Below are positions 151-20,000 of a stretch of 20,000 nucleotides of DNA, piece by piece. Each line of letters starts with the position of its first letter. Position 1 is the stretch's first letter. This DNA comes from Catajapyx aquilonaris (taxonomy: Eukaryota). A program made the translations under genes and the position numbers. The DNA is taken from contig KZ538699.1 of NCBI GenBank assembly GCA_000934665.2, positions 45,403 to 65,402 of the forward strand, written 5' to 3'. The notes beneath the pieces are model-generated. The model ran no database searches, was not told the origin of the DNA, and worked only from the letters and a program-made list of their open reading frames with translations.

Positions 151-754
151 GATCCTAATTGGATAAAACCTCGTGGTGTACTGCAACGCAACACAGCCCT
201 TCAGTGGTTGAGGGAACACTTGGACCCAGCTCAGGATACTGGTGTGGTGTACTTTGCAGATGATGATAACACATACTCGCTGAAACTGTTTGATGAGATG
301 AGATGGATCAAGGGAGTTGGAGTGTGGCCTGTTGGGCTTGTGGGTGGACTCATGGTGGAGAGGCCAAAGCTTGACTCAAAGGGTAAAGTGTCAGGATGGC
401 TGGCGGGATGGAGGCCTGAACGCCCATTTGCAATAGACATGGCTGGATTTGCAGTCAATGTGGGACTATTGCTTAGTCGGCCAAAGGCAAAGTTCTCGTT
501 TGAGGTTGAGCGGGGTTATCAGGAATCAGAACTTCTAAAAAACTTGGTCACCTTGGACCAACTCGAAGTAAAGGCTGGAAACTGCACACAGGTAAGTGCA
601 AAAGCACTGGGTTCTTGACATTTAATGATTGACAATTATTGTATCTACTTTTAAGGTATACGTGTGGCACACAAGAACTGAAGCACCAAAGCTAAAGCAA
701 GAAGAAGCATGGAAAAAAGCTGGGCATCCATCTAATGTTGGGATCGAAGTGTGA
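151..754 (+). CDS. GlcAT-I: Galactosylgalactosylxylosylprotein 3-beta-glucuronosyltransferase (GT43, GlcAT-I/B3GAT-like), last two coding exons (151-591, 656-754); 5' part lies upstream of the window
   Basis: Acceptor tttttag|151. The exon translates DPNWIKPRGVLQRNTALQWLR...VVYFADDDNTYS...VWPVGLVGG...RPFAIDMAGFAVN...GYQES...NCTQ. A GT-AG intron spans 592-655 (gtaagt...ttaag). The last exon reads VYVWHTRTEAPKLKQEEAWKKAGHPSNVGIEV* (TGA 752-754). FADDDN, DMAGFA and VWHTRT are hallmark GT43 motifs. Assignment to the GlcAT-I paralog is from recall, not a search. Confidence 0.93.
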
Positions 755-3132: not shown

Positions 3133-6100
3133 TCAAGACATGAGGTTGGAGATAATCCTGGATTTGAAGGATTTCCTCCTTGTTGCTTGACTGAGAGATT
3201 CTTCATCCAGGAGTTCAGGGCCGATGTCATCAACATCAATCTCATTCTCAAACATGCGGTGAAGCAGTCGTTCCAGATTGTAATGACCTGTAAACAGTTA
3301 GATTGATGTTATGGTTCTTTCATAAGTTGCAATGTCAGTTCGTACGGCTTGTTATGTAGAATCTAATGTCTGTCTGCTTGGACATATCAGGTAACATGGT
3401 GGTTGGCACTGCCATTTCTGGATCCATTTGACGGGTGTCATGGTCAGCATCTACTTCGTCCCCTTCCATGTTGGAAACCAGTTCCTCTGAGTCATCTGTG
3501 GATTTCTTCAGAGGCTTGCTGTAAAGGTTGGTATTTAACAAAATTTTATACTGCATAATTTTGGTATAGTGTATTCGGGACAATGTGCTTACCTTCCCAG
3601 TCCTAATCCCATTTCATTCAGCTTCACCTCAACTGCATTCTCGTAACGACCTTTGGATAAGGTGTACTTCAGCAGGAAGACTTCTAAGACAAATGCAGTG
3701 AATATGCTGCAACAAATTAATTGCAATGAAACAGTGTTACACGTGTAACATATAAAATTGGTTTCAATCTCACTTTAGTATTATGACGACACAGCTTATG
3801 TGGAACGTGAAGAAGTAGATCCGTGCGAATGTACTGGTCACCTTCACAAATCCTGCTGTTATCAGTGGTCAATTGTTAAGGTGCAATATTTTTAATAGAC
3901 AAAATTTAATTGCTGTATTTAAAGATTGTACAAAAGGATATCATGCCATTGATTAACTACTGTCAGTGTGAACATAAGCATCATTGCTTGAAGTATATCA
4001 TTGAAGTTGTTGCTGCAGTAGTGAAGTCTCCAGAACTCTGTTCCATTTAGGTTAGAATTGCCACAGAATAGGTCATGTTCATCCATAATGCTGGTGTTAT
4101 AGCCACGATTGGCCACAAGTCCATTGAATAGTTCCATTCCAATGATGGCATACATGTAGTAGAATACCTGCATCAATATGATCAATTTTTATTCCATGTT
4201 GGTAATCCAAAGTACTTCTTCACTTACCAAAACGACACCACCATAGAGGATAATGGAAGGTCCTAATGCCAAGATAGTTTCAACGATGACTTGAAAGCGC
4301 TCGATGCTACCCATTATTTTCACCAAGCGGAGAACCCTGAGCACCAGAAGGACATCCAGAGAAACGCGGCTTCCATGATCTGAGCAAGCAAGGTGTAAAA
4401 TTACTTTTGAAATATTGCTATTGTACTTGGATCACTTTACCGTGGTGCTGGATTTCTTCAGCTAAGGCAATGATAAAAGCTGAGCCTATTACAAAAAAAT
4501 CGAATCTGCAAAGAGTACACATTGGATTTATTAATAATTGCTAGGGGAAGCAATGCAAATATGTATGGTCCTTATTGAATAACAGGGTCACGTTCTAGCA
4601 GTTGCATGAAAGTACGCAATGAGAAGCCAAAAAGCAAGTGGTGAATAGTCCAATCATTTGAAATAAATTATTACACGCAATGAAGGTGGCTCAAATACAA
4701 ATCTTTCAGCTGTAAATACAGCTAACCATTAAATTACAGAATAGGAAGAAGTCATGAATGACTACACGACAAGGCTTCCCCATACTTACATGTTCCAGAA
4801 GCGCTTGAAGAACTCACGGCCCCCAAATGAGTAGAATTTCAGGATAATTTCCAACATGAAGATTGTAAGGAAAAACCATTCTGCGGCATCCAAGTCCAGA
4901 GCAATGAAAATTGCATTCATTACTATGATGCTGTCAAACAGGTATCTGAAGTACCTGCAGTTTGATAAGACACGTCAGTGAAAATGCAGAATGCGAATTT
5001 AAAATATCTCAGCCATCCCACCTGTGCCTAACACACTTCCTGATGAGTTTTGAGGTGTCTGAGTTATACATGTTTGGGAAGAATTTTTCTATTAAGGTAG
5101 TTCGGTCACGCACTTCTGACAGCTCCACATTAAGCAATCCTTCCAACTGCAGAAACTCAGCCTTGCCTGTGAGAATTGTATTTCAAAATGAGGTGACACT
5201 TTGATGTTATCCCCACATACCTATGTAATCCTCTTGGGTTGAGTTCAGTACCACCCACAATACATTCTGATACATTTGATCTTGCTCAGGAAGGATCCTG
5301 TCAATCAAGGCATGAAATCTGTCTCTTAAAAGCACTCTCTTTCCTTGAACAGCTTCACTTAGAATATCAAATGCGTTAGATAACTGCCTCCTCTTTCGGT
5401 ACACACTCTTGATTACTTCATTCTGTAAAGGATTGCATTGTAAAATTGTTTCTTTGGTAAGACATAGTTTGACCCACTTTCAAGTGCTTCCGGAAGTTGT
5501 TGTACACCACAGCCAGGATAATGCTCATGAAAATATAAAGACTAATGATGAGGAATAGTACAAAGAATATAGCAAACCATCGGCTGAGATCATAGGCAGG
5601 AATCCTGAAATCAGTTTCATCATTAGTAAATGTGGCTGTAATTGTTCCAAGTAATAAGTGAAGCATTTATTACGCACATGACATCTGGGCTATTTGCAGT
5701 GGTCACAAACACATAGAGGTCAAATAAACTATCGCCAAAAGAATCAAAGTAGGAGTTCCCATTGGGATAGTGCAGATTCCTAAAGGGTGAGTTACGTAGC
5801 ATTAGTAATGTCTGAGGCACAGTACCAGTACATGAACTTCATACCTCTTGCTGAACAGCTTGAAAGCCATCAGTGAAAATATAGCAAGGGTCAAGAAGAA
5901 TAGCACCAAGACATTAATGATGTCTGGCAAGGTCCTTTGGATGTTCCTTAGTGTCCTCCGAATATGTTTCCCTTCCGGCACGCACGTTACAAATAATGGC
6001 CGCAGAGTACGAGACCACCTACATCATTTGCCACAGGTTAATCACTGAGTTGGTTTAATATTAATACATGAGTTAGCATGCTAGTAGCGGTGTCTCATAC

Positions 6101-7062
6101 TTGTCATTGTTAGGTGCTTGTTATGATGCAAGGGAATTAAACATACAACGTGACCATGCCATTGAATATCAAAGTGGAAAACGTGCAATTGGAGTCGCAA
6201 TGTGAGGGCTTACCGTATGCCTTCAATGCCATTGGCTTGCAGTACTAAGAACACTACAATATCAACAAAGGTTAACTGCAAAGAAATTGTAAATGCATTT
6301 CATTCTGGTCAGGTGCAGACACAAGCATGAACTCAGGAAGTCATGCTGCAGCCTTGCATGATGCAGTGATCAGGTTCAGTAACATAAATGGTCACTTACA
6401 CATAGCACCACCAGAAGTGCAATATTCTTCCTGTCAGCCCAGAAGAGATTGCTTTCACTGAAGTAGAGAGCATGGCAGAATCTGAATGCATAGAAGAGCA
6501 AGCAGAATGTCTCGACTATCATTGTTAACTGAAATGATAACCTCAACGTTACATGTGATTTTCAGACATCTCATGGTTTTTGTATACCCAGTATGCCAAT
6601 GCCAGTCCTTGAACAGCTGGTTTTTCAAAAAGGGCCAATGACAGGTGCAAAGCAATGCACAAACTGAGGGCCCATGCTAATGCTTCGTGATTGTAGAGTT
6701 CATAGTGTCTGAAATCAGAGCATCCAAATTATTCTGATTCAGCAGTGCTTTACTTAGCAATATCCGCACCTGACAGCCTTCTCATTTGGCTTGTAGTTAG
6801 AGTGCCTCCCCTTGCATGCATCCAACACATATGCCGCAGCCACCACAAAATCAGATTCAGTTGGCTGGGACTGTTTGCCCTGATTTACCATTTCTTGCCC
6901 AATTCCTGAAACTGTCAATTTTGATACTGGCGATAACAACATTGAGTCAAACGTGGTGACATAATTACCACTGGCAGCAGCATATGGCGCGTCGTCTGCT
7001 GCCACGATTTCATTGGGGGCGTCGTGGTCATCTGCTGGACCGCCTTCGGATGCAGCGTCCAT
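3133..7062 (-). CDS. TPC3: Two-pore calcium/sodium channel, TPC3 subtype (about 831 aa, 17 coding exons)
   Basis: Manually spliced exons (minus strand): 7062-6770, 6708-6588, 6528-6400, 6275-6214, 6018-5845, 5779-5678, 5604-5478, 5422-5221, 5166-5022, 4954-4790, 4505-4441, 4379-4228, 4167-3942, 3864-3774, 3706-3593, 3518-3346, 3287-3133. All phases are consistent and the total is 2496 nt (831 aa plus TGA). There are two 6-TM domains: LALFEKP, IS4 IRWSRTLRPLF, filter I VTTANSPDVMIPAY, IS6 LAVVYNNFRKHLKNE, IIS4 LRVLRLVK, filter II TVVNQWHV. TTANSPD and VVNQWH are the TPC3-type filters. The start Met (7062) is the least certain part. Confidence 0.92.
3865..3941 (-). other. U12-type (minor spliceosome) AT-AC intron, 77 nt, in TPC3
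   Basis: 5' end ATATCCTTTT (U12 consensus RTATCCTTT). Branch site ACCTTAAC at 3882-3875 lies 10 nt upstream of the terminal ...CCAC. Removing the intron joins CAT G|TG ATA and gives NQWH-V-ITAGF in frame. Confidence 0.92.
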
Positions 7063-7126
7063 CGTGGCCCAGGGGCCGGCGAAGGGCACTGTAGGGATTA
7101 CTGTGGGGAGATGACCTGGAGTCAAC

Positions 7127-7265
7127 CTGGTAGGGAAAACGTGGCCTGGCAGACGTACGCCCACCGGAGTTGTGTCGTGTATGACGTCCCTCGCAGATGA
7201 TACGTGCGGTATGTATGTCAACAGCACCGATCTCGGTATATGGACCAGTCGATACTGAATCTCAC
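7127..7265 (-). other. Probable 5'UTR intron of TPC3
   Basis: Donor GTG|gtgaga at 7265 and polypyrimidine acceptor gttttccctaccag| at 7127, 64 nt upstream of the ATG at 7062. No transcript evidence. Confidence 0.4.
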
Positions 7266-8755
7266 CACATCCACTGACCTCGGATGCGGTGGATGCCCAA
7301 GCGCGGAATTATTCCTCAAGGTCATTCCAGATTGGATGACCACAGAGGAATGCAGTCGCAGTAATAATTCACTAGTCATCAAGGTTTTTGGCAGTGTAAT
7401 TAATTACATTTAGGCATATTTTCTATATGTGTAGGGATGCAATTTGACGAATCTTAGTGTGAATTTTTTATCATAAAGTACGGTATTTCATGACCATTTT
7501 ATACCTGTGGTTGGAAGGATGTCTAAACTATAAGAGGATTTTTCCAGCATGAAGAGTTCACACTTTTATTGACGAAATACTTAGTTTTCTTTTTAAATCT
7601 TTTTTACATCGCGTGATACATATCTGAAAGTATACCTTTCGCTTTATTCAGGGCGCTGAGTACCGTGACTAGACTACACTTAAAAAAGAACATGATTGCT
7701 GCCACAATGATTTTTTTTTTCTTCCAACATACAGAAAATTCAAGATGGTAATATAGAGATGTCTCTGTGAAAAAGCAACTTATTTTTTTGACACCCCTTC
7801 CAATTTACGTTTGAACGTATATAATTATGATACTTGCATTATGCCCCGGTATAGATTGCACATGTTATAAATATAAATGAACACATGTTGAAACATAAAT
7901 TAGCTATAAGTTGCGCCTCATTCACATGAGACATCTCGGTCACGGTCAGAAATCCCGATGGACACAGGACAACTCGTGTTCCACACCTATAAAATGGCGC
8001 TAAAGAATCATGTCACTATATCATATAAACAAGTGTACAATCCGAGATTGCAACTGGTACGAATTTGCATGTACAGAACACCGAGAGGGGACACAAAGCA
8101 CCACTGTTGCCTTATTGGAGACAAGTCTTTGAGGCATCCAACCCACCCTCTCTGAATTTTTGAGGCGCACTGTATCCGTGATAGCTTACAAGGTGAATCA
8201 GATTTTAATATTTTTTAAAGTATTGGCTGTTACATTTTTAAAAAGAGTAACTGGCAACCAAATGGAGACATGTTAGTCTTTTTTCTGAATATCTTGTTAC
8301 TTTTCAATCACCTGACAACTGCAGATTTTACCCTAATCTTTGGGTGCGTTTAGCTTTAGGAACGGTATCTACAGGAAGTAATATGGGATAATCTTATCTT
8401 GGTTCACCATGTACAACCACATACACACACGGCGGTTTCTGGAGTTATAGGTTCGAATTTTGGTCTGGGTTTATACATCAGTGAGTGTTGGAGTCTGGAG
8501 ATTCTATTAGCTTCGGCTTATTCAAAATTGCCGTCTTCTTCCTTCACAGGTCCATGGTCGTTATTTGTCCTGTCCTGTCGCACGTGGAACCTCCAAGGTA
8601 AGGATGCTCACTTTTTTTCAATATTTTGAATTTAATGCACTAGAGTTCCTTTGGAACACCTTTGGCCCCTCCAAAAACACACACACTCACACACAATTGC
8701 CCCACTATAGACGGTCGGATTAAAGTCTTCAGTGGCGGAGATGGTGATCTCTTAG

Positions 8756-8798
8756 TTTATTTTTTGTTCTTTTTTTGAAATTTTTAAAAATGTTTATT
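8756..8798 (-). promoter_or_regulatory. Candidate polyadenylation signals for the Prop-like gene
   Basis: Two AATAAA hexamers on the minus strand (8798-8793 and 8761-8756), about 0.9 kb downstream of the stop codon. Confidence 0.4.
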
Positions 8799-9657
8799 AG
8801 AGCGGGAAGGGGGATAAGCCACGGCACATTACACCAGTAGCACATACACGCAATGAGGACACCGATCAACGTACAGCACAGCATTAATATAATATCATCA
8901 TCATTAGTAGTGTTATTATCCCGCTACTCTCTAGAAAAAACCCTGTACAATGGCAGAAATAACAAATCCTAGGTGAGCTACAGTACGCTACAGACTAACG
9001 AAGAATTTGTATCCTGGACCATCCTAGTCATAGGAACATTGGAGGCTATCAATCAGAAGACGATGACTTGGAGTGAGCCCTTGGGCATGTAGAGAGGGGG
9101 GTTTCTGGAGTCCAATTGGCGTAACATGGCTAGTGGACAGTCAGCAGGTGACATCCTTTCAAGATTTACCGGACATTGAGAATCTTCCCAGCATGTCGTC
9201 TGCACTGTAATTCATGACCATACGTGACCATGTACTGACTGTGACATGTGGCGACAATTGGACCGCATATGGCGAGAAGGGAAAAGGGGGGTGCGTCCCG
9301 TTGTAAATCACTAGAGGTGGGAGGGCATTGTCTTTCAATGCGTGCTGACCCAACCCGGATCTGGCAGAGCGGCGCCCGGTTGAACAGAGTCTGTGCCAGG
9401 TGAACCACACGAAGATGAAGAGCAGGTAGTAGACGTGGGTAAGGGCAGGGCAGAAGATGGCGGCGACTGAAGCGTGGAGGACGGGGACGATGAGGATGGC
9501 GCTGCCGCCGGCAACGTCGGGCTCGATCGTCACGTACCGGCGCCGCCTCCGCCGCTGGAGGAGGACGAGTTGTTGTTGTCCTCCTTGGCGAAGTAGTAGT
9601 CCGGGTAGGAGAAGGGATAGTTCGTTGCTTCCGGGTAGACTTGCGGGTAGGCCATGT

Positions 9658-10627
9658 TTACGTCTGGTATTGGAGCATCGGGGTAGACAAGTTTGGGTGA
9701 TGTGTAGTATTCATACGCAGGGCGGACAGGCTCTTGTTGTACCACTCGTCCTCCGGCGCCATCCCTGAAAGAGAGGCAGACTTCACGAATCACTCCCCTA
9801 GCCTTCTGGAGCTACCGACTGGCTCATAACCATTGGGACCTTCACACAACACAAAGTACCGTTTGTCCCCCCCAAAAAAATGTTTCGGACAAACGTAGGC
9901 TACCCAGACTCGGTGTAGTGTAAATGACCCCAATGATATAACAAGCAGTTGGTGAGGAGACCCGATTCCCAAGGCTTGTAACAGCAACTTTGGCAAAGTG
10001 AAGACGGATATAGGTGATATGGATCAATCACGGGGCAGGACACTTCCGGATAGTTGACAAAAACTGGGGGATGGGTAGAACTTCTCCCAGAAAGGTCCTG
10101 TCTCACGCTCAACTTTTACTATGCATATAGCCTACTGTAGTACTTTGCCAAAGGTGATGACATGCACTTCAATGTTTGAAAGACATTGAAATATTACTGT
10201 GCAATGTGTAAAAATACAGGGTGGTGCACTGCCCAATTCCTCAGTGCAAGAAACGGGCTTTTGAACTTCATCTTTATTATTTTTGTATAAGAATTTTGCC
10301 TTGCAGTAAGTTGGAGACATTTTGCACCGCACCCTGCCCATATCGGGCCATCAAGAGCAATCCGGAGCCCGCACTTACCCATGGCATCTTGACGCATTCC
10401 GGAAACTGGCGACATATTGGTGGCCGTATGCGGCATGGAAAAAGGTTGCGTCATGGCCGGGTAGGACGTGGACGTCATCTGCGGAGAAAGAAAAGAAGGT
10501 CGTTATATTTTTGATGCAGCGGTGCTACAAACTGCTGCGTTTTATGTGGCTGGCGAAACGTATGCAGGACAAAGATTGACAAAGCGAACTGATTTGCAAA
10601 GTGCCCGCTGCCGCTGGATGCTGCAGC

Positions 10628-10660
<33 letters not shown>

Positions 10661-11006
10661 CGCCTCGTCTCTTCATCACAAATTCCCCGTGATGCTGGCA
10701 GTACTTTGCGTACCTCCGCACACTTTGCGAGTTCGTTAGGCATGTATTTTGCACGACTACATTTGTGCCGTCTGTAGTGGGACACGCCTGCTGCCTAATT
10801 AATTTTGAAAGAATGAGCCGGACACAAGCTGGAGTACTGCGGAGCTGGTTACAATAGTATAATGAGAATGATTTTAACCGTTCTAAAATTTTATCGTGTA
10901 AGGTCTTGTTTATTCTTTAAACTTAATGTGAGACAGAAACGCACTGAAAATTATGACCCTGGATCAAATTAAAATTCCTCATTGGTGTATCCGGACAGGT
11001 TTTGCT

Positions 11007-11081
<75 letters not shown>

Positions 11082-12112
11082 GGCGGCCCTTGGTATCATA
11101 TCAAAATGGCCAACTCTCCGACCGGCTTGTGTCTAACATTCCCCGTGTGTGTATACCGTAAGGCTACATGTTTGTGCAAATGATTTGGTGGGTTTTAATT
11201 AAATTGGCCAATTTGTTAGTGACCTCAAAGAAAGTAATGAGAAGCTTTGGAATTTGAAGTGGAGGAAAGGGAGTGGCGGAATGTCGATCCGGAGTAAACT
11301 CGGTGGAACATGAATCGCAACACTACGGATTCCTGACTCATCGGTTATGTCTGAGACGAATTGAGTTTGCCATGGCCCGTGAGCATCCAAGGCACAAGAT
11401 GCGCGAGGGGGGAGGGGGGGAGCTGGATGCTGTGCCAGAGAGGAGGAAGGGAAAGAGATGAGAATCCTGAATGTCTCCTCCCGCGGGTGATACACAGGGA
11501 TTCACTTGGCGTCGTCATGTACTGTACAAGTCCAATTTTCTGTAAACTTTCAAAACCGGTTTGACGATTAATGCGAAATGTTACAAGTTGCATGAAATCT
11601 TTTCCTGCGACTCGCCTATATTCTGTATGTGGAAGATGCCGCCTTCAATTGCGACAACACGCGATACAACAAAGTCGATTGGGTTACCTGACTTCCAGGA
11701 TAGTCTCCATAAATCTACTGGTATCATACCCTAATTGCGCTGACGACATGCAGTGCTTTTGCACAGTCTGGCAACGGCCATTATGTCCCTCTGAGTGCAT
11801 CATATTAGTGCGCTCATCATTTACGGCGAATTTGTCCGACACAGTTCGTTCAGCATGAACTGTTTTCACGTATCATTGGCAACCCCACCACCGTTAAAGA
11901 ACTATTGAGTGACTCACCTGTGGATACCTATTCATGGTGTTGATGGAATTGATTGGGTTTGGATGCGGGTAGGGCTGATATCCTCTGGTGGCCGTCGGGT
12001 AAATGTTGCGCATCATAGCGCCATTGCAGGTGGGGATCACCGCAGGGGCCAGCGCCTTCTGCAGCTGCTTCTCCTGCTTCCGGTACTTGGCTCGACGATT
12101 CTGGAACCATAC
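9658..12112 (-). CDS. Prop: Paired-like (Q50) homeobox transcription factor, Prop/PROP1/unc-42/CG32532 family; last three coding exons (12112-11918, 10478-10379, 9764-9658); homeodomain helices 1-2 encoded upstream of the window
   Basis: Exon 12112-11918 begins at the classic paired-class intron position: VWFQNRRAKYRKQEKQLQKALAPAVIPTCNGAMMRNIYP...NRYPQ. Exon 10478-10379 reads MTSTSYPAMTQPFSMPHTATNMSPVSGMRQDAM. Exon 9764-9658 reads GMAPEDEWYNKSLSALRMNTTHHPNLSTPMLQYQT* (TAA). Splice sites are canonical GT-AG with consistent phases (0, 1). The C-terminal peptides resemble my recollection of arthropod Prop/CG32532 proteins. Confidence 0.85.
10633..10660. repeat. (GA)n microsatellite in Prop intron
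   Basis: About 14 GA units. Confidence 0.95.
11008..11081. repeat. (TAA)n microsatellite, about 24 units, in Prop intron
   Basis: Perfect TAA run; it produces the spurious poly-Ile ORF 10953-11183. Confidence 0.97.
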
Positions 12113-18044: not shown

Positions 18045-18719
18045 TATAGGTGGAAAGAATATCCACTCAGAGTATAAGTGGAAGGAGTAATACTTTAGGT
18101 ATAGTATACTTATACACAATAAACAGTAGGATTTGTAAAGCTACATGGACAATGAAGAGATATAAACTGTTTTTCACTTAGACAATGGAATTTGTAAGAG
18201 AAATCATAGAAAATTCCTTCACATGATTTTGACTTTTCACATAAATTATGATGCTCCCATGTCCCATGTAAACATATCAATTTTCTACTGTAAAACTGCC
18301 CTTTCCATTTACTTACATTTTCCACGTATATTATTACTTGGAAAAGTTTAAGTGAGCAATTATTTATATGTGATAAGAGAAATTACACGAAGGAAAATGG
18401 GACGCTTTCAAATAGAAAAGGAGATTGATGTAAAAAAAAAAGCCTTCCCACAGTATGTTGTGCACAATAATTTTTCAACTTATTTGTGCCTGTGTTCTTC
18501 AGCGAATTCGAGAAACTTGAGCGTGAGTGCGGCAACTGGCTTCTGGCGAACACAACGTTATGAAAATAGTAACACCCCATATTTTAAATTGACTATAGAC
18601 TTTGAAATGGACAATTCTGATTTTGATGTAGCACACCACACCATCCTCTAAAAAAATTCCCCCCCCCCNTGCAAGGCAATAGGCCGTTTCCAGTTCCGGA
18701 TCCCGCTGAGTAGGCAGTC

Positions 18720-18802: not shown

Positions 18803-20000
18803 TCTGGCCGTGCGGACGTGAGACGAAGTGGAAAGACGTTCTCCCCCCTCCACGCCGTGCCGAATCCCTAACAAGGTCCGGGGCTTCATAACGCATTCCG
18901 CACTGCATTTTAGATCAAACATTACCCAATCGCTAGGGATAGGGGAGCTTAATGATGATTGGCAGGCCGCCTAATGAACGATTCTTGGATGTCTCTTCAA
19001 AGATAGACCGGCCCTCTCTCTCTCTGCTCTCTCTCTCTCGCTCTCTTCCATCTCTCCCAGGCTGGTACTGATGCTGCGGCGAGCGGCCCCGCGCCCTGAT
19101 GCACGCTCTCGGCCTAGACAACAGGGCTTTCAACGTAGGCAAATTAGATTTCGCCAGCCAAGCTTAGAAATAATGGAGGTTTGCATGAAAGCCTTTTACA
19201 ACCTATAAGATACTCAAATGAGGGACCCAAACCCTCCCCCATCCCCCCACCTACTATCGTCTCAACCCCCCCGGTCCCCAGTACCTTTTCTGTTCACCCT
19301 CCCACTCTCAACCACCCCATGCTGCAGCATCTTGGATCGAAAGATAGATTATGGATTGTGTTGGCGAGGCCAATATCTTCAATTTCCGCCATATTTCATG
19401 CCGACTAAAAGATCCCTGTCTCGTCTCGTAAAATCTGCCACCCTGAGAGTTCCTTGGCGGAAAATTGCAGGCGGGGAGTATAGGCTAGGATCGAGTCTGG
19501 AGATGGAAGATGGGAGTAAGGTAAGGGGGGGGTGGGATGGGATGGGAGGTGGAGAAAAGAGAAGAAAAAAAAAAGGCAATGGAGGGATGCAACAAGCTAC
19601 TTCCATTCTGTGTCTATCAGCTTCCACTTATTGCGACTCGTTCTTGGGACGCTTGGTCTATTAATTCTGAGATATTTCGGGAATAAACTTGTCTAAGCGC
19701 AATTACCCTCGTTACAACGGCATGCTATCATTCTGAAACACTAGGGACAATTTGAAAACTGTAGGTATGCAATATTACCCACAAAGTATGGTTGGAAAAT
19801 GTCATCTCGGTCAAAGTTTATGATATCAAAGGGCATCGCCTATACTTTCTAGAAAGCCTAGAAAGTTTAGCCCCTACCAGTTAGTCCCACCCGCAAGGCA
19901 CAAAAGTCTGTTGGGTTGCGAACGAGTCAGGATGATTTGCCTTCCCAATTCTAAAACCTAAACAAAATCACAATTTGAAACCGATACATGACCTTAAGAA

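Follow-up and report, generated by a model that had tools for sequence, protein, structure and literature searches.

Comparative evidence for a probable dual-coding last exon, with a candidate alternative acceptor 16 nucleotides upstream, in an unc-42/skh-type homeobox gene of Catajapyx aquilonaris

The subject of this analysis is a homeobox gene on the minus strand of a 20,000-nucleotide (nt) stretch of the Catajapyx aquilonaris genome (assembly GCA_000934665.2, contig KZ538699.1, positions 45,403 to 65,402), referred to as the window, in whose coordinates all positions are given. The last exon of this gene appears to encode two different protein tails, one in the canonical frame and one in an overlapping frame that stays open beyond the canonical stop. 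Comparison with related loci indicates that such dual coding is real in relatives and probably real in the window, and it is likely that the alternative frame is coding in Catajapyx aquilonaris itself; the full proposal, which includes entry into that frame through an acceptor lying 16 nt upstream of the normal one (the delta-16 route), is moderately favored. A preliminary description of this DNA had put forward the dual-coding last exon with a +4 tandem donor as its switch. The dual coding gains comparative support from a homologous tail, from selection in Collembola-like loci and from the GC content at third codon positions (GC3) in the window, and the tandem donor is not supported as the switch.

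In the proposed arrangement, the main mRNA would use the junction 10379->9764 and encode the family-wide tail ...EDEWYNKSLSALRMN...LQYQT, and a second mRNA would be spliced into this exon with its reading frame displaced by one base. The tail of the second product would comprise 77-83 residues, with the tyrosine-rich acidic motif NYPFSYPDYYFAKED, a Ser/Gly run and an end at the TGA 9532-9530. The switch would be alternative splicing at the last intron, most likely at the 3′ site AG 9782-9781 (exon start 9780, +16 nt), which would give a product reading ...RQDAM-VCLSFR-DGAGGRVVQQE.... We infer that the alternative frame is translated in this species, that splicing uses the upstream AG and that each tail gives the transcription factor a different activity. 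The first AATAAA downstream of both stops, a likely poly(A) signal by consensus match only, lies at 8793..8798 (minus strand), which places both stops in one terminal exon, and the second mRNA should thus escape nonsense-mediated decay under the general rule. Use of the alternative stop in place of the canonical one shortens the 3′ untranslated region (UTR).

Judged from its encoded protein, the gene is an arthropod member of the Prop family of paired-like homeobox genes, orthologous to unc-42 of C. elegans, shaking hands (skh) of Tribolium and CG32532 of Drosophila. The product of the exon at 11918..12112 (P0001) has 358 matches in protein databases, the best of them 82-91% identical over 65 residues, under the names unc-42, unc-42-like and prophet of Pit-1 and from insects, springtails, crustaceans, myriapods and spiders. 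This exon encodes the C-terminal end of the homeodomain and a linker (VWFQNRRAKYRKQEKQ...NRYPQ), runs from phase 0 to phase 0 between the acceptor ttacag and the donor gtgagt, and contains homeodomain helix 3 with the C-terminal flank WFQNRRAKYRKQEKQLQKAL of the Prop/unc-42/skh family. As only 12 homeodomain residues lie within it, P0001 matches positions 46-57 of the Pfam Homeodomain model at 17.7 bits, under the cut-off. The N-terminal two thirds of the homeodomain were not found in a six-frame motif scan of the whole window with simple patterns, and the missing upstream homeobox exon probably lies beyond base 20000 or escaped those patterns. CG32532 has been grouped with PROP1 (PMC2211742), and skh, unc-42 and CG32532 have been equated (PMC8543150); in C. 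elegans, unc-42 acts as a terminal selector of neuron identity, and in Tribolium, skh controls axon outgrowth in the central complex (PMC8543150; PMC8225392).

The penultimate exon at 10379..10478 (MTSTSYPAMTQPFSMPHTATNMSPVSGMRQDAM plus a final G, reading MTSTSYP...MRQDAM plus G) is 100 nt long, ends in phase 1 and is collinear with orthologous proteins. It ends ...GCC ATG G and is followed by GTAAGTGCGG, in which the donor GTAAGT (10373..10378) holds a first GT at 10378-10377 and a second at 10374-10373 (GTGCGG). The last exon follows the acceptor ...ctctttcag and in the canonical frame reads (G)MAPEDEWYNKSLSALRMNTTHHPNLSTPMLQYQT and the TAA 9660-9658, so that 9658..9764 forms the dual-coding overlap. 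The coordinates and sequences given in the preliminary description for the last exon, the donor and both stops are all reproduced on re-reading. The canonical tail carries the family motif EDEWYNKSLSALRMN...PMLQYQT, common to insects, myriapods, crustaceans and spiders. Any OAR-like resemblance of this tail finds no backing in the Pfam OAR profile: the model (PF03826) has no match to the canonical tail (P0003) at E<=10 nor to a full orthologue (P0005) at E<=1, and the tail is therefore not called an OAR domain.

The alternative frame (-1, codons from 9763) encodes a 77-residue peptide over 9530..9763, up to the TGA at 9532-9530, and extends 128 nt or 41 codons beyond the canonical TAA. Its ending, ...NYPFSYPDYYFAKEDNNNSSSSSGGGGAGT, consists of the tyrosine-rich acidic motif NYPFSYPDYYFAKED (9578..9622), a serine-rich end and the stop. 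What sets this frame apart is its codon composition: past the canonical stop, G or C occupies 19, 21 and 35 of 41 codon positions 1, 2 and 3, respectively (Fisher p=7.5e-5). The C/G-ending codons that had been remarked on in this region are thus real, and the resulting GC3 of 0.85 compares with 0.67-0.76 in the known exons of the gene. This periodicity and the homology of the tail count as signals where the openness of the frame does not.

That homology is to the tails of springtail orthologues. Gene models from two Collembola, Allacma fusca (P0004) and Orchesella cincta (P0021), follow this -1 frame, running ...RQD.M-AWFTCR-DE.GGR.VQQES...PYEYF... and ending ...NYPFYY[AH]DYYFNKEDSS.SPPNST.SA. 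before the stop. By BLASTP, the window's alternative peptide (P0002) matches P0004 at 42.4 bits (E 5e-11), and its tail end alone matches P0021 at 28.5 bits (E 9e-6). A metagenome scan with an alignment of canonical last exons provided 50 loci with an orthologous last exon, five of which (L007, L008, L010, L011 and L013) are Collembola-like by their canonical exons; in all five, 188-341 nt separate the canonical stop from the end of the open -1 frame, which finishes with the same terminal motif. A sixth metagenome protein, P0124, likewise carries this motif. A profile of the terminal block, built from seven Collembola sequences with the window left out, scores the window's alternative frame at 28.1 bits, compared with 6.0 bits for the best of 500 dinucleotide shuffles in six frames and at most 1.9 bits for the 45 other loci, so that the window's end is homologous to the Collembola tail end. 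The distance from motif to stop is also kept between the window and Collembola.

The Collembola models (P0004 and P0006 of Allacma fusca, P0021 of Orchesella cincta) resemble the window in gene, in frame, in terminal motif and in a stop 13-15 residues after KED, and their junction, DAM-AWFTCR-DE, corresponds to an acceptor 16 nt upstream. They differ in length, as their tails span 100-160 residues with Ala/Ser/Gly/His-rich spacers and the window has nearly no spacer. These models are unreviewed automatic predictions, named 'hypothetical' or 'unnamed protein product', and no source calls them an alternative frame. Searches with the alternative peptide alone returned no match at E<=0.001 among 1.84 billion representatives (phmmer) and, in a word-indexed search of longer proteins, 160 candidates with none at E<=10; a profile of eight tails (A2) matched at least four proteins (P0021, P0004, P0124 and P0006) among the best 8000 candidates, with low-complexity words saturating that set. 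Blank searches with the alternative peptide set no bound on the taxonomic range of the tail. Pfam gives no match to the alternative tails.

Substitution patterns among the relatives indicate that both frames are under purifying selection in Collembola-like loci. The selection claim rests on the closest pair, L011 and L013, whose nucleotide alignment was made without translation: past the canonical stop, 13, 15 and 46 differences fall at alternative codon positions 1, 2 and 3 (about 90 sites each), the gaps of 9, 6 and 3 nt are whole codons, and directly after the alternative stop, where 10, 16 and 12 of 23 sites differ, the periodicity is gone. More distant pairs are noisier (18/17/41 for L007-L010 and 41/45/60 for L008-L013). 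In protein-guided codon alignments, which favor a low nonsynonymous value, nonsynonymous divergence (pN) is below synonymous divergence (pS) past the canonical stop in 15 of 15 pairs, with 0.167 vs 0.712 for L011-L013. Selection on the canonical frame is seen in the overlap itself, where canonical-frame pS among the Collembola-like loci is 0.09-0.38 vs 0.53-0.77 in the preceding exon, 2-6 fold lower; the reduced synonymous divergence expected of an overlap is thus found among these loci.

Beyond the alternative stop of the window, the sequence at 9335..9529 (minus strand) shows strong 3-base periodicity for about 170 nt, with a GC content of 0.77-0.90 at the alternative second codon position, nearly all of it C. 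The TGA 9532-9530 is followed by C, and the frame continues for 64 codons as a Ser/Pro/Thr/Ala-rich sequence, RSSPTLPAAAPSSSSPSST.... Options for this periodicity are a read-through extension, a recently truncated tail, the GC3 of a third frame (IEPDVAGGSAILIV...) or C-rich low complexity; no such signal follows the alternative stops of the Collembola-like loci.

Outside Collembola, the distribution of the frame is uneven. Of 49 orthologous last exons, 24 have a -1 frame that runs on beyond the canonical stop, and most of these lack the conserved tail motif; the frame is closed inside the overlap in the mayfly-like L003, in L004 and in L009, and is short in the Daphnia-like L005 and L006. In ants (L001 and L002; old models P0085 and P0091) the frame meets no further stop for as much as 251 nt beyond the canonical one and lacks the tyrosine-rich motif; similarity in this frame is confined to close relatives and is 3′ UTR-like, which shows that gene predictors can take the alternative frame by accident. 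Decapod models from Homarus americanus (P0028) and Halocaridina rubra (P0011) read the -1 frame of the same exon through the canonical stop for about 270 further residues, are 67% identical over 430 aligned positions and share the frame despite several whole-residue indels, which suggests a second, much longer alternative-frame tail in decapods. Unlike the window, these models read the penultimate exon out of frame as well. Homology of the decapod tail to the motif of Collembola and the window is not shown, as it scores -2.5 bits, no better than shuffles, and in the ESM Atlas its best score of 0.78 is at noise level and its model is disordered.

The entry into the second frame is placed at the last intron by L010, in which the -1 frame of the penultimate exon has two stops; that frame is also poorly conserved between L011 and L013, and a frame switch one intron upstream was rejected on these grounds. 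In the window itself no stop interrupts the -1 frame anywhere in the penultimate exon (10375-10524, minus strand; ...DDVHVLPGHDATFFHAAYGHQYVASFRNASRCHG), and under normal splicing this frame is continuous with the alternative frame of the last exon; such openness is probably due to chance, given the stops or lack of conservation in relatives. If the 100-nt penultimate exon is skipped, reading passes into the third frame, where a stop falls 53 nt upstream of the canonical one. If the last intron is retained, reading on past the donor ends within 2-4 codons in L001, L010, L011 and L013; no stop was seen in the few codons read past the donors of the window, L007 and L008, and the frame that continues into the intron of the window closes at 10194, still about 430 nt away from the acceptor.

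For the site at this intron, the comparative data make the alternative acceptor at -16 a better candidate switch than the +4 donor. Each of the six loci with the tail, the window among them, has its nearest AG upstream of the normal acceptor at a distance of exactly 16 nt. No such spacing occurs in the six loci that have this intron and lack the tail (L001, L002, L003, L005, L006 and L009); there, the nearest upstream AG is at 35, 35, 36, 3 and 3 nt, with none visible by eye in about 55 intron bases of L009. In the window this AG (9781..9782) stands within gtgaAG, a context shared by three of the five relatives, and ends 16 nt upstream of the normal acceptor. Its use would make exonic the stretch tctgcctctctttcag (9765..9780), which together with the G of the preceding exon reads V-C-L-S-F-R in the alternative frame; the window thus reads gtgaAG/tctgcctctctttcag/GG, and the relatives (g)tgaAG or taaAG followed by cttggtttgcNtgYag/GG. 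Sixteen added nt change the frame by +1, just as four would, and are themselves open in the alternative frame. In the relatives, the orthologous 16 nt read (A)WFACR and reproduce the junction DAM-AWFTCR-DE of P0004 and P0021. Within these 16 nt the five relatives differ at two positions only, both of them synonymous third positions of the alternative frame (GCA/GCC/GCT and TGC/TGT).

Two further features of this region were noted in the Collembola-like loci. A conserved intronic block (...gTAATAAAAT... or TTAATAAAAT) lies about 8-25 nt upstream of the -16 AG in L007, L008, L010, L011 and L013; it includes AATAAA and, about 13 nt ahead of that AG, a possible branch site, and nothing similar is present in the window. 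UGCAUG is an RBFOX-type motif, and a motif of this type at the Collembola acceptor was considered and set aside, since it is present in three of five loci only and its variable base is a third position of the alternative frame.

The +4 tandem donor proposed previously would join 10375 to 9764, adding GTAA (10378-10375) and giving ...DAMGK-DGAGG.... The arithmetic is right, as the four bases put the upstream frame into the alternative frame; the second GT exists at 10374-10373, and GTGCGG is also found at 6769-6764 (minus strand), at the end of the open reading frame 6754..7308 and thus at the putative donor of the neighbouring gene, which fits the earlier remark that the same hexamer serves there. 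Alternative 5′ splice sites are most commonly of the GYNNGY type, and splicing there is mainly noise or coupled to mRNA decay (PMC4267661); as in the delta-4 tandem donors of that study, the GTAAGT of the window has the required second GT and its use gives the alternative frame. The second GT does not track the tail, however. The donors of the five tail-bearing relatives are GTAAGG, GTAAGT, GTATGT, GTGAGG and GTAAGG, so that it is lacking in three of them (L007, L011 and L013) and present in L008 and L010, and it is also present in the tail-lacking L001/L002, L005 and L006; this is unlike what is expected of a functional delta-4 donor, which relatives that keep the tail would be expected to conserve. 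GTAAGT is the donor consensus and any consensus donor of the form GTRAGT carries a GT at +5/+6, so that the tandem by itself says nothing; the upstream donor GTGAGT (11917-11912) likewise has one. The first site, TGG/GTAAGT, is moreover far closer to the donor consensus than the second, TAA/GTGCGG. Entry through the +4 donor is accordingly unlikely.

A different possibility is that the alternative tail is coding in Collembola but a relic in the window species, neither spliced in nor translated now. The strong pyrimidine tract at the normal acceptor and the weakness of both alternative candidates agree with this, as do the 41 codons past the stop in the window vs 62-113 in Collembola, the in-frame TGA beyond which Ser/Pro-rich sequence continues, and the loss or original absence of the frame in other arthropod loci, where it is closed (L003, L004 and L009) or short (L005 and L006). 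Against it stand the absence of any stop or frameshift across 77 codons, a GC3 that suggests ongoing or very recent selection, and the retention of the motif, the motif-to-stop distance and the -16 AG, which together make a relic distinctly improbable. Translation of the alternative frame without a splice change is more doubtful again, whether by reinitiation at the ATG 9655-9653 or by -1 frameshifting at C CCA AAC (9697-9691). The ATG is in the alternative frame, two bases past the TAA, with A at -3 and G at +4, and in L010, L011, L013 and Allacma an alternative-frame ATG overlaps the TGA stop; such a Met simply follows from the TGA, however, and it is replaced by Ile in L007, L008, Orchesella and P0124. 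The heptamer fits the pattern X XXY YYZ in the canonical frame (His-Pro-Asn), and slippage at this point would fuse the canonical motif with the alternative tail, but all five relatives have T CCA AAC or T CAA AAC instead, and programmed frameshifting at this site was rejected for that reason. Both routes are at odds with the synonymous constraint in the overlap and with the conservation of the 16 nt before the acceptor, which suggest that the alternative frame is translated from the beginning of the exon onward. The least probable explanation by far is chance, by which a stop-poor, C-rich 3′ UTR merely resembles coding sequence: when the 3′ region is shuffled by dinucleotides, a given frame remains open for 42 codons or more in 780 of 2000 shuffles, the two remaining frames of this C-rich region run for 163 and 165 codons without a stop, and most of the orthologous loci that are open past the stop have no motif. 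These observations explain an open frame; the codon periodicity and a profile score of 28.1 bits in exactly the alternative frame speak against chance.

Several points weigh against a second frame that is translated from the -16 acceptor in the window. The length of the open frame is on its own no significant signal. L010-L013 differ at 25/29/32 positions without clear periodicity, and among the more distant nucleotide alignments non-triplet gaps occur in the low-complexity middle of the tail. A single sequence represents the window's own lineage, and the case for selection there is drawn from composition and homology. RefSeq-type models of Folsomia, orthopterans, decapods and others show the canonical tail only, and the AWFTCR junction comes from automatic gene models that are possibly ab initio. 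The 16 nt themselves are dissimilar, with VCLSFR in the window and AWFACR in Collembola, and the upstream site of the window is a weak AAG with purine-rich sequence before it, the pyrimidine tract lying between the two AGs; by the general rules of 3′ splice-site choice, most splicing should use the normal acceptor. With the +4 donor TAA/GTGCGG weak too, either alternative site would give a minor or regulated isoform.

Dual coding by non-triplet alternative splicing is an already established kind of gene organization. In C. elegans 54 such events have been described, more than 100 human regions are constrained in both frames, and the oldest cases lie mainly in neuronal genes (PMC13247117; bioRxiv 10.64898/2026.05.28.727796). 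The C. elegans and human isoforms resemble the arrangement proposed for the window in that a non-triplet splice change lets a single exon serve two frames and in their insensitivity to nonsense-mediated decay. As in the Collembola-like loci, the overlap also shows stronger conservation at wobble positions of the reference frame, a feature reported for C. elegans (PMC13247117). They differ in resting on RNA sequencing (RNA-seq), reverse transcription polymerase chain reaction (RT-PCR) or peptides, the window case being known from sequence alone. The word 'homeobox' has no occurrence in the available text of these two sources, and neither this gene nor this lineage is among their passages. Within the unc-42/skh literature searched, supplements aside, no mention of isoforms or of a second frame of this gene was found: 'isoform' and 'splic' occur 0 times in the available text of PMC8543150, as do 'isoform' and 'splice' in that of PMC8225392.

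If the proposed arrangement is true, one gene would give rise to two transcription factors with the same DNA-binding domain and different effector ends, and the two C-termini could explain context-dependent activity of unc-42/skh. The aromatic and acidic motif after a low-complexity spacer would be compatible with an activation-type effector end. In a broader and tentative scenario, an old, regulated 16-nt alternative acceptor would toggle a neuronal terminal-selector homeobox protein between the family-wide tail, of inhibitory type, and the tyrosine-rich acidic tail; the arrangement would be older than the divergence of the window's lineage from Collembola, with later losses in several lines of insects and branchiopods, would be paralleled or much extended (to about 270 residues) in decapods, and in the window the frame might be extended by read-through of the TGA 9532-9530 into the Ser/Pro-rich sequence behind it. 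The exon would also represent a clean non-vertebrate case of dual coding, found from the sequence and with selection visible in both frames. A further lesson is that a GT at +5/+6 of a consensus donor is no evidence for a tandem donor, the comparative data here favoring another site.

Elsewhere in the window, the intron upstream of the penultimate exon contains two repeats, at about 10975-11080 and 10640-10670: a long microsatellite of trinucleotide units, which gives Tyr/Ile/Asn runs whichever frame is read, and a dinucleotide repeat of CT/GA. Open frames at 3300-7310 (minus strand) resemble exons of a two-pore-channel-type gene, the TPC3 of the preliminary description, and open frames at 151-618 (plus strand) resemble a glucuronyltransferase-type gene, both judged by eye from translations. 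A single N is present in the window, near 18650-18700.

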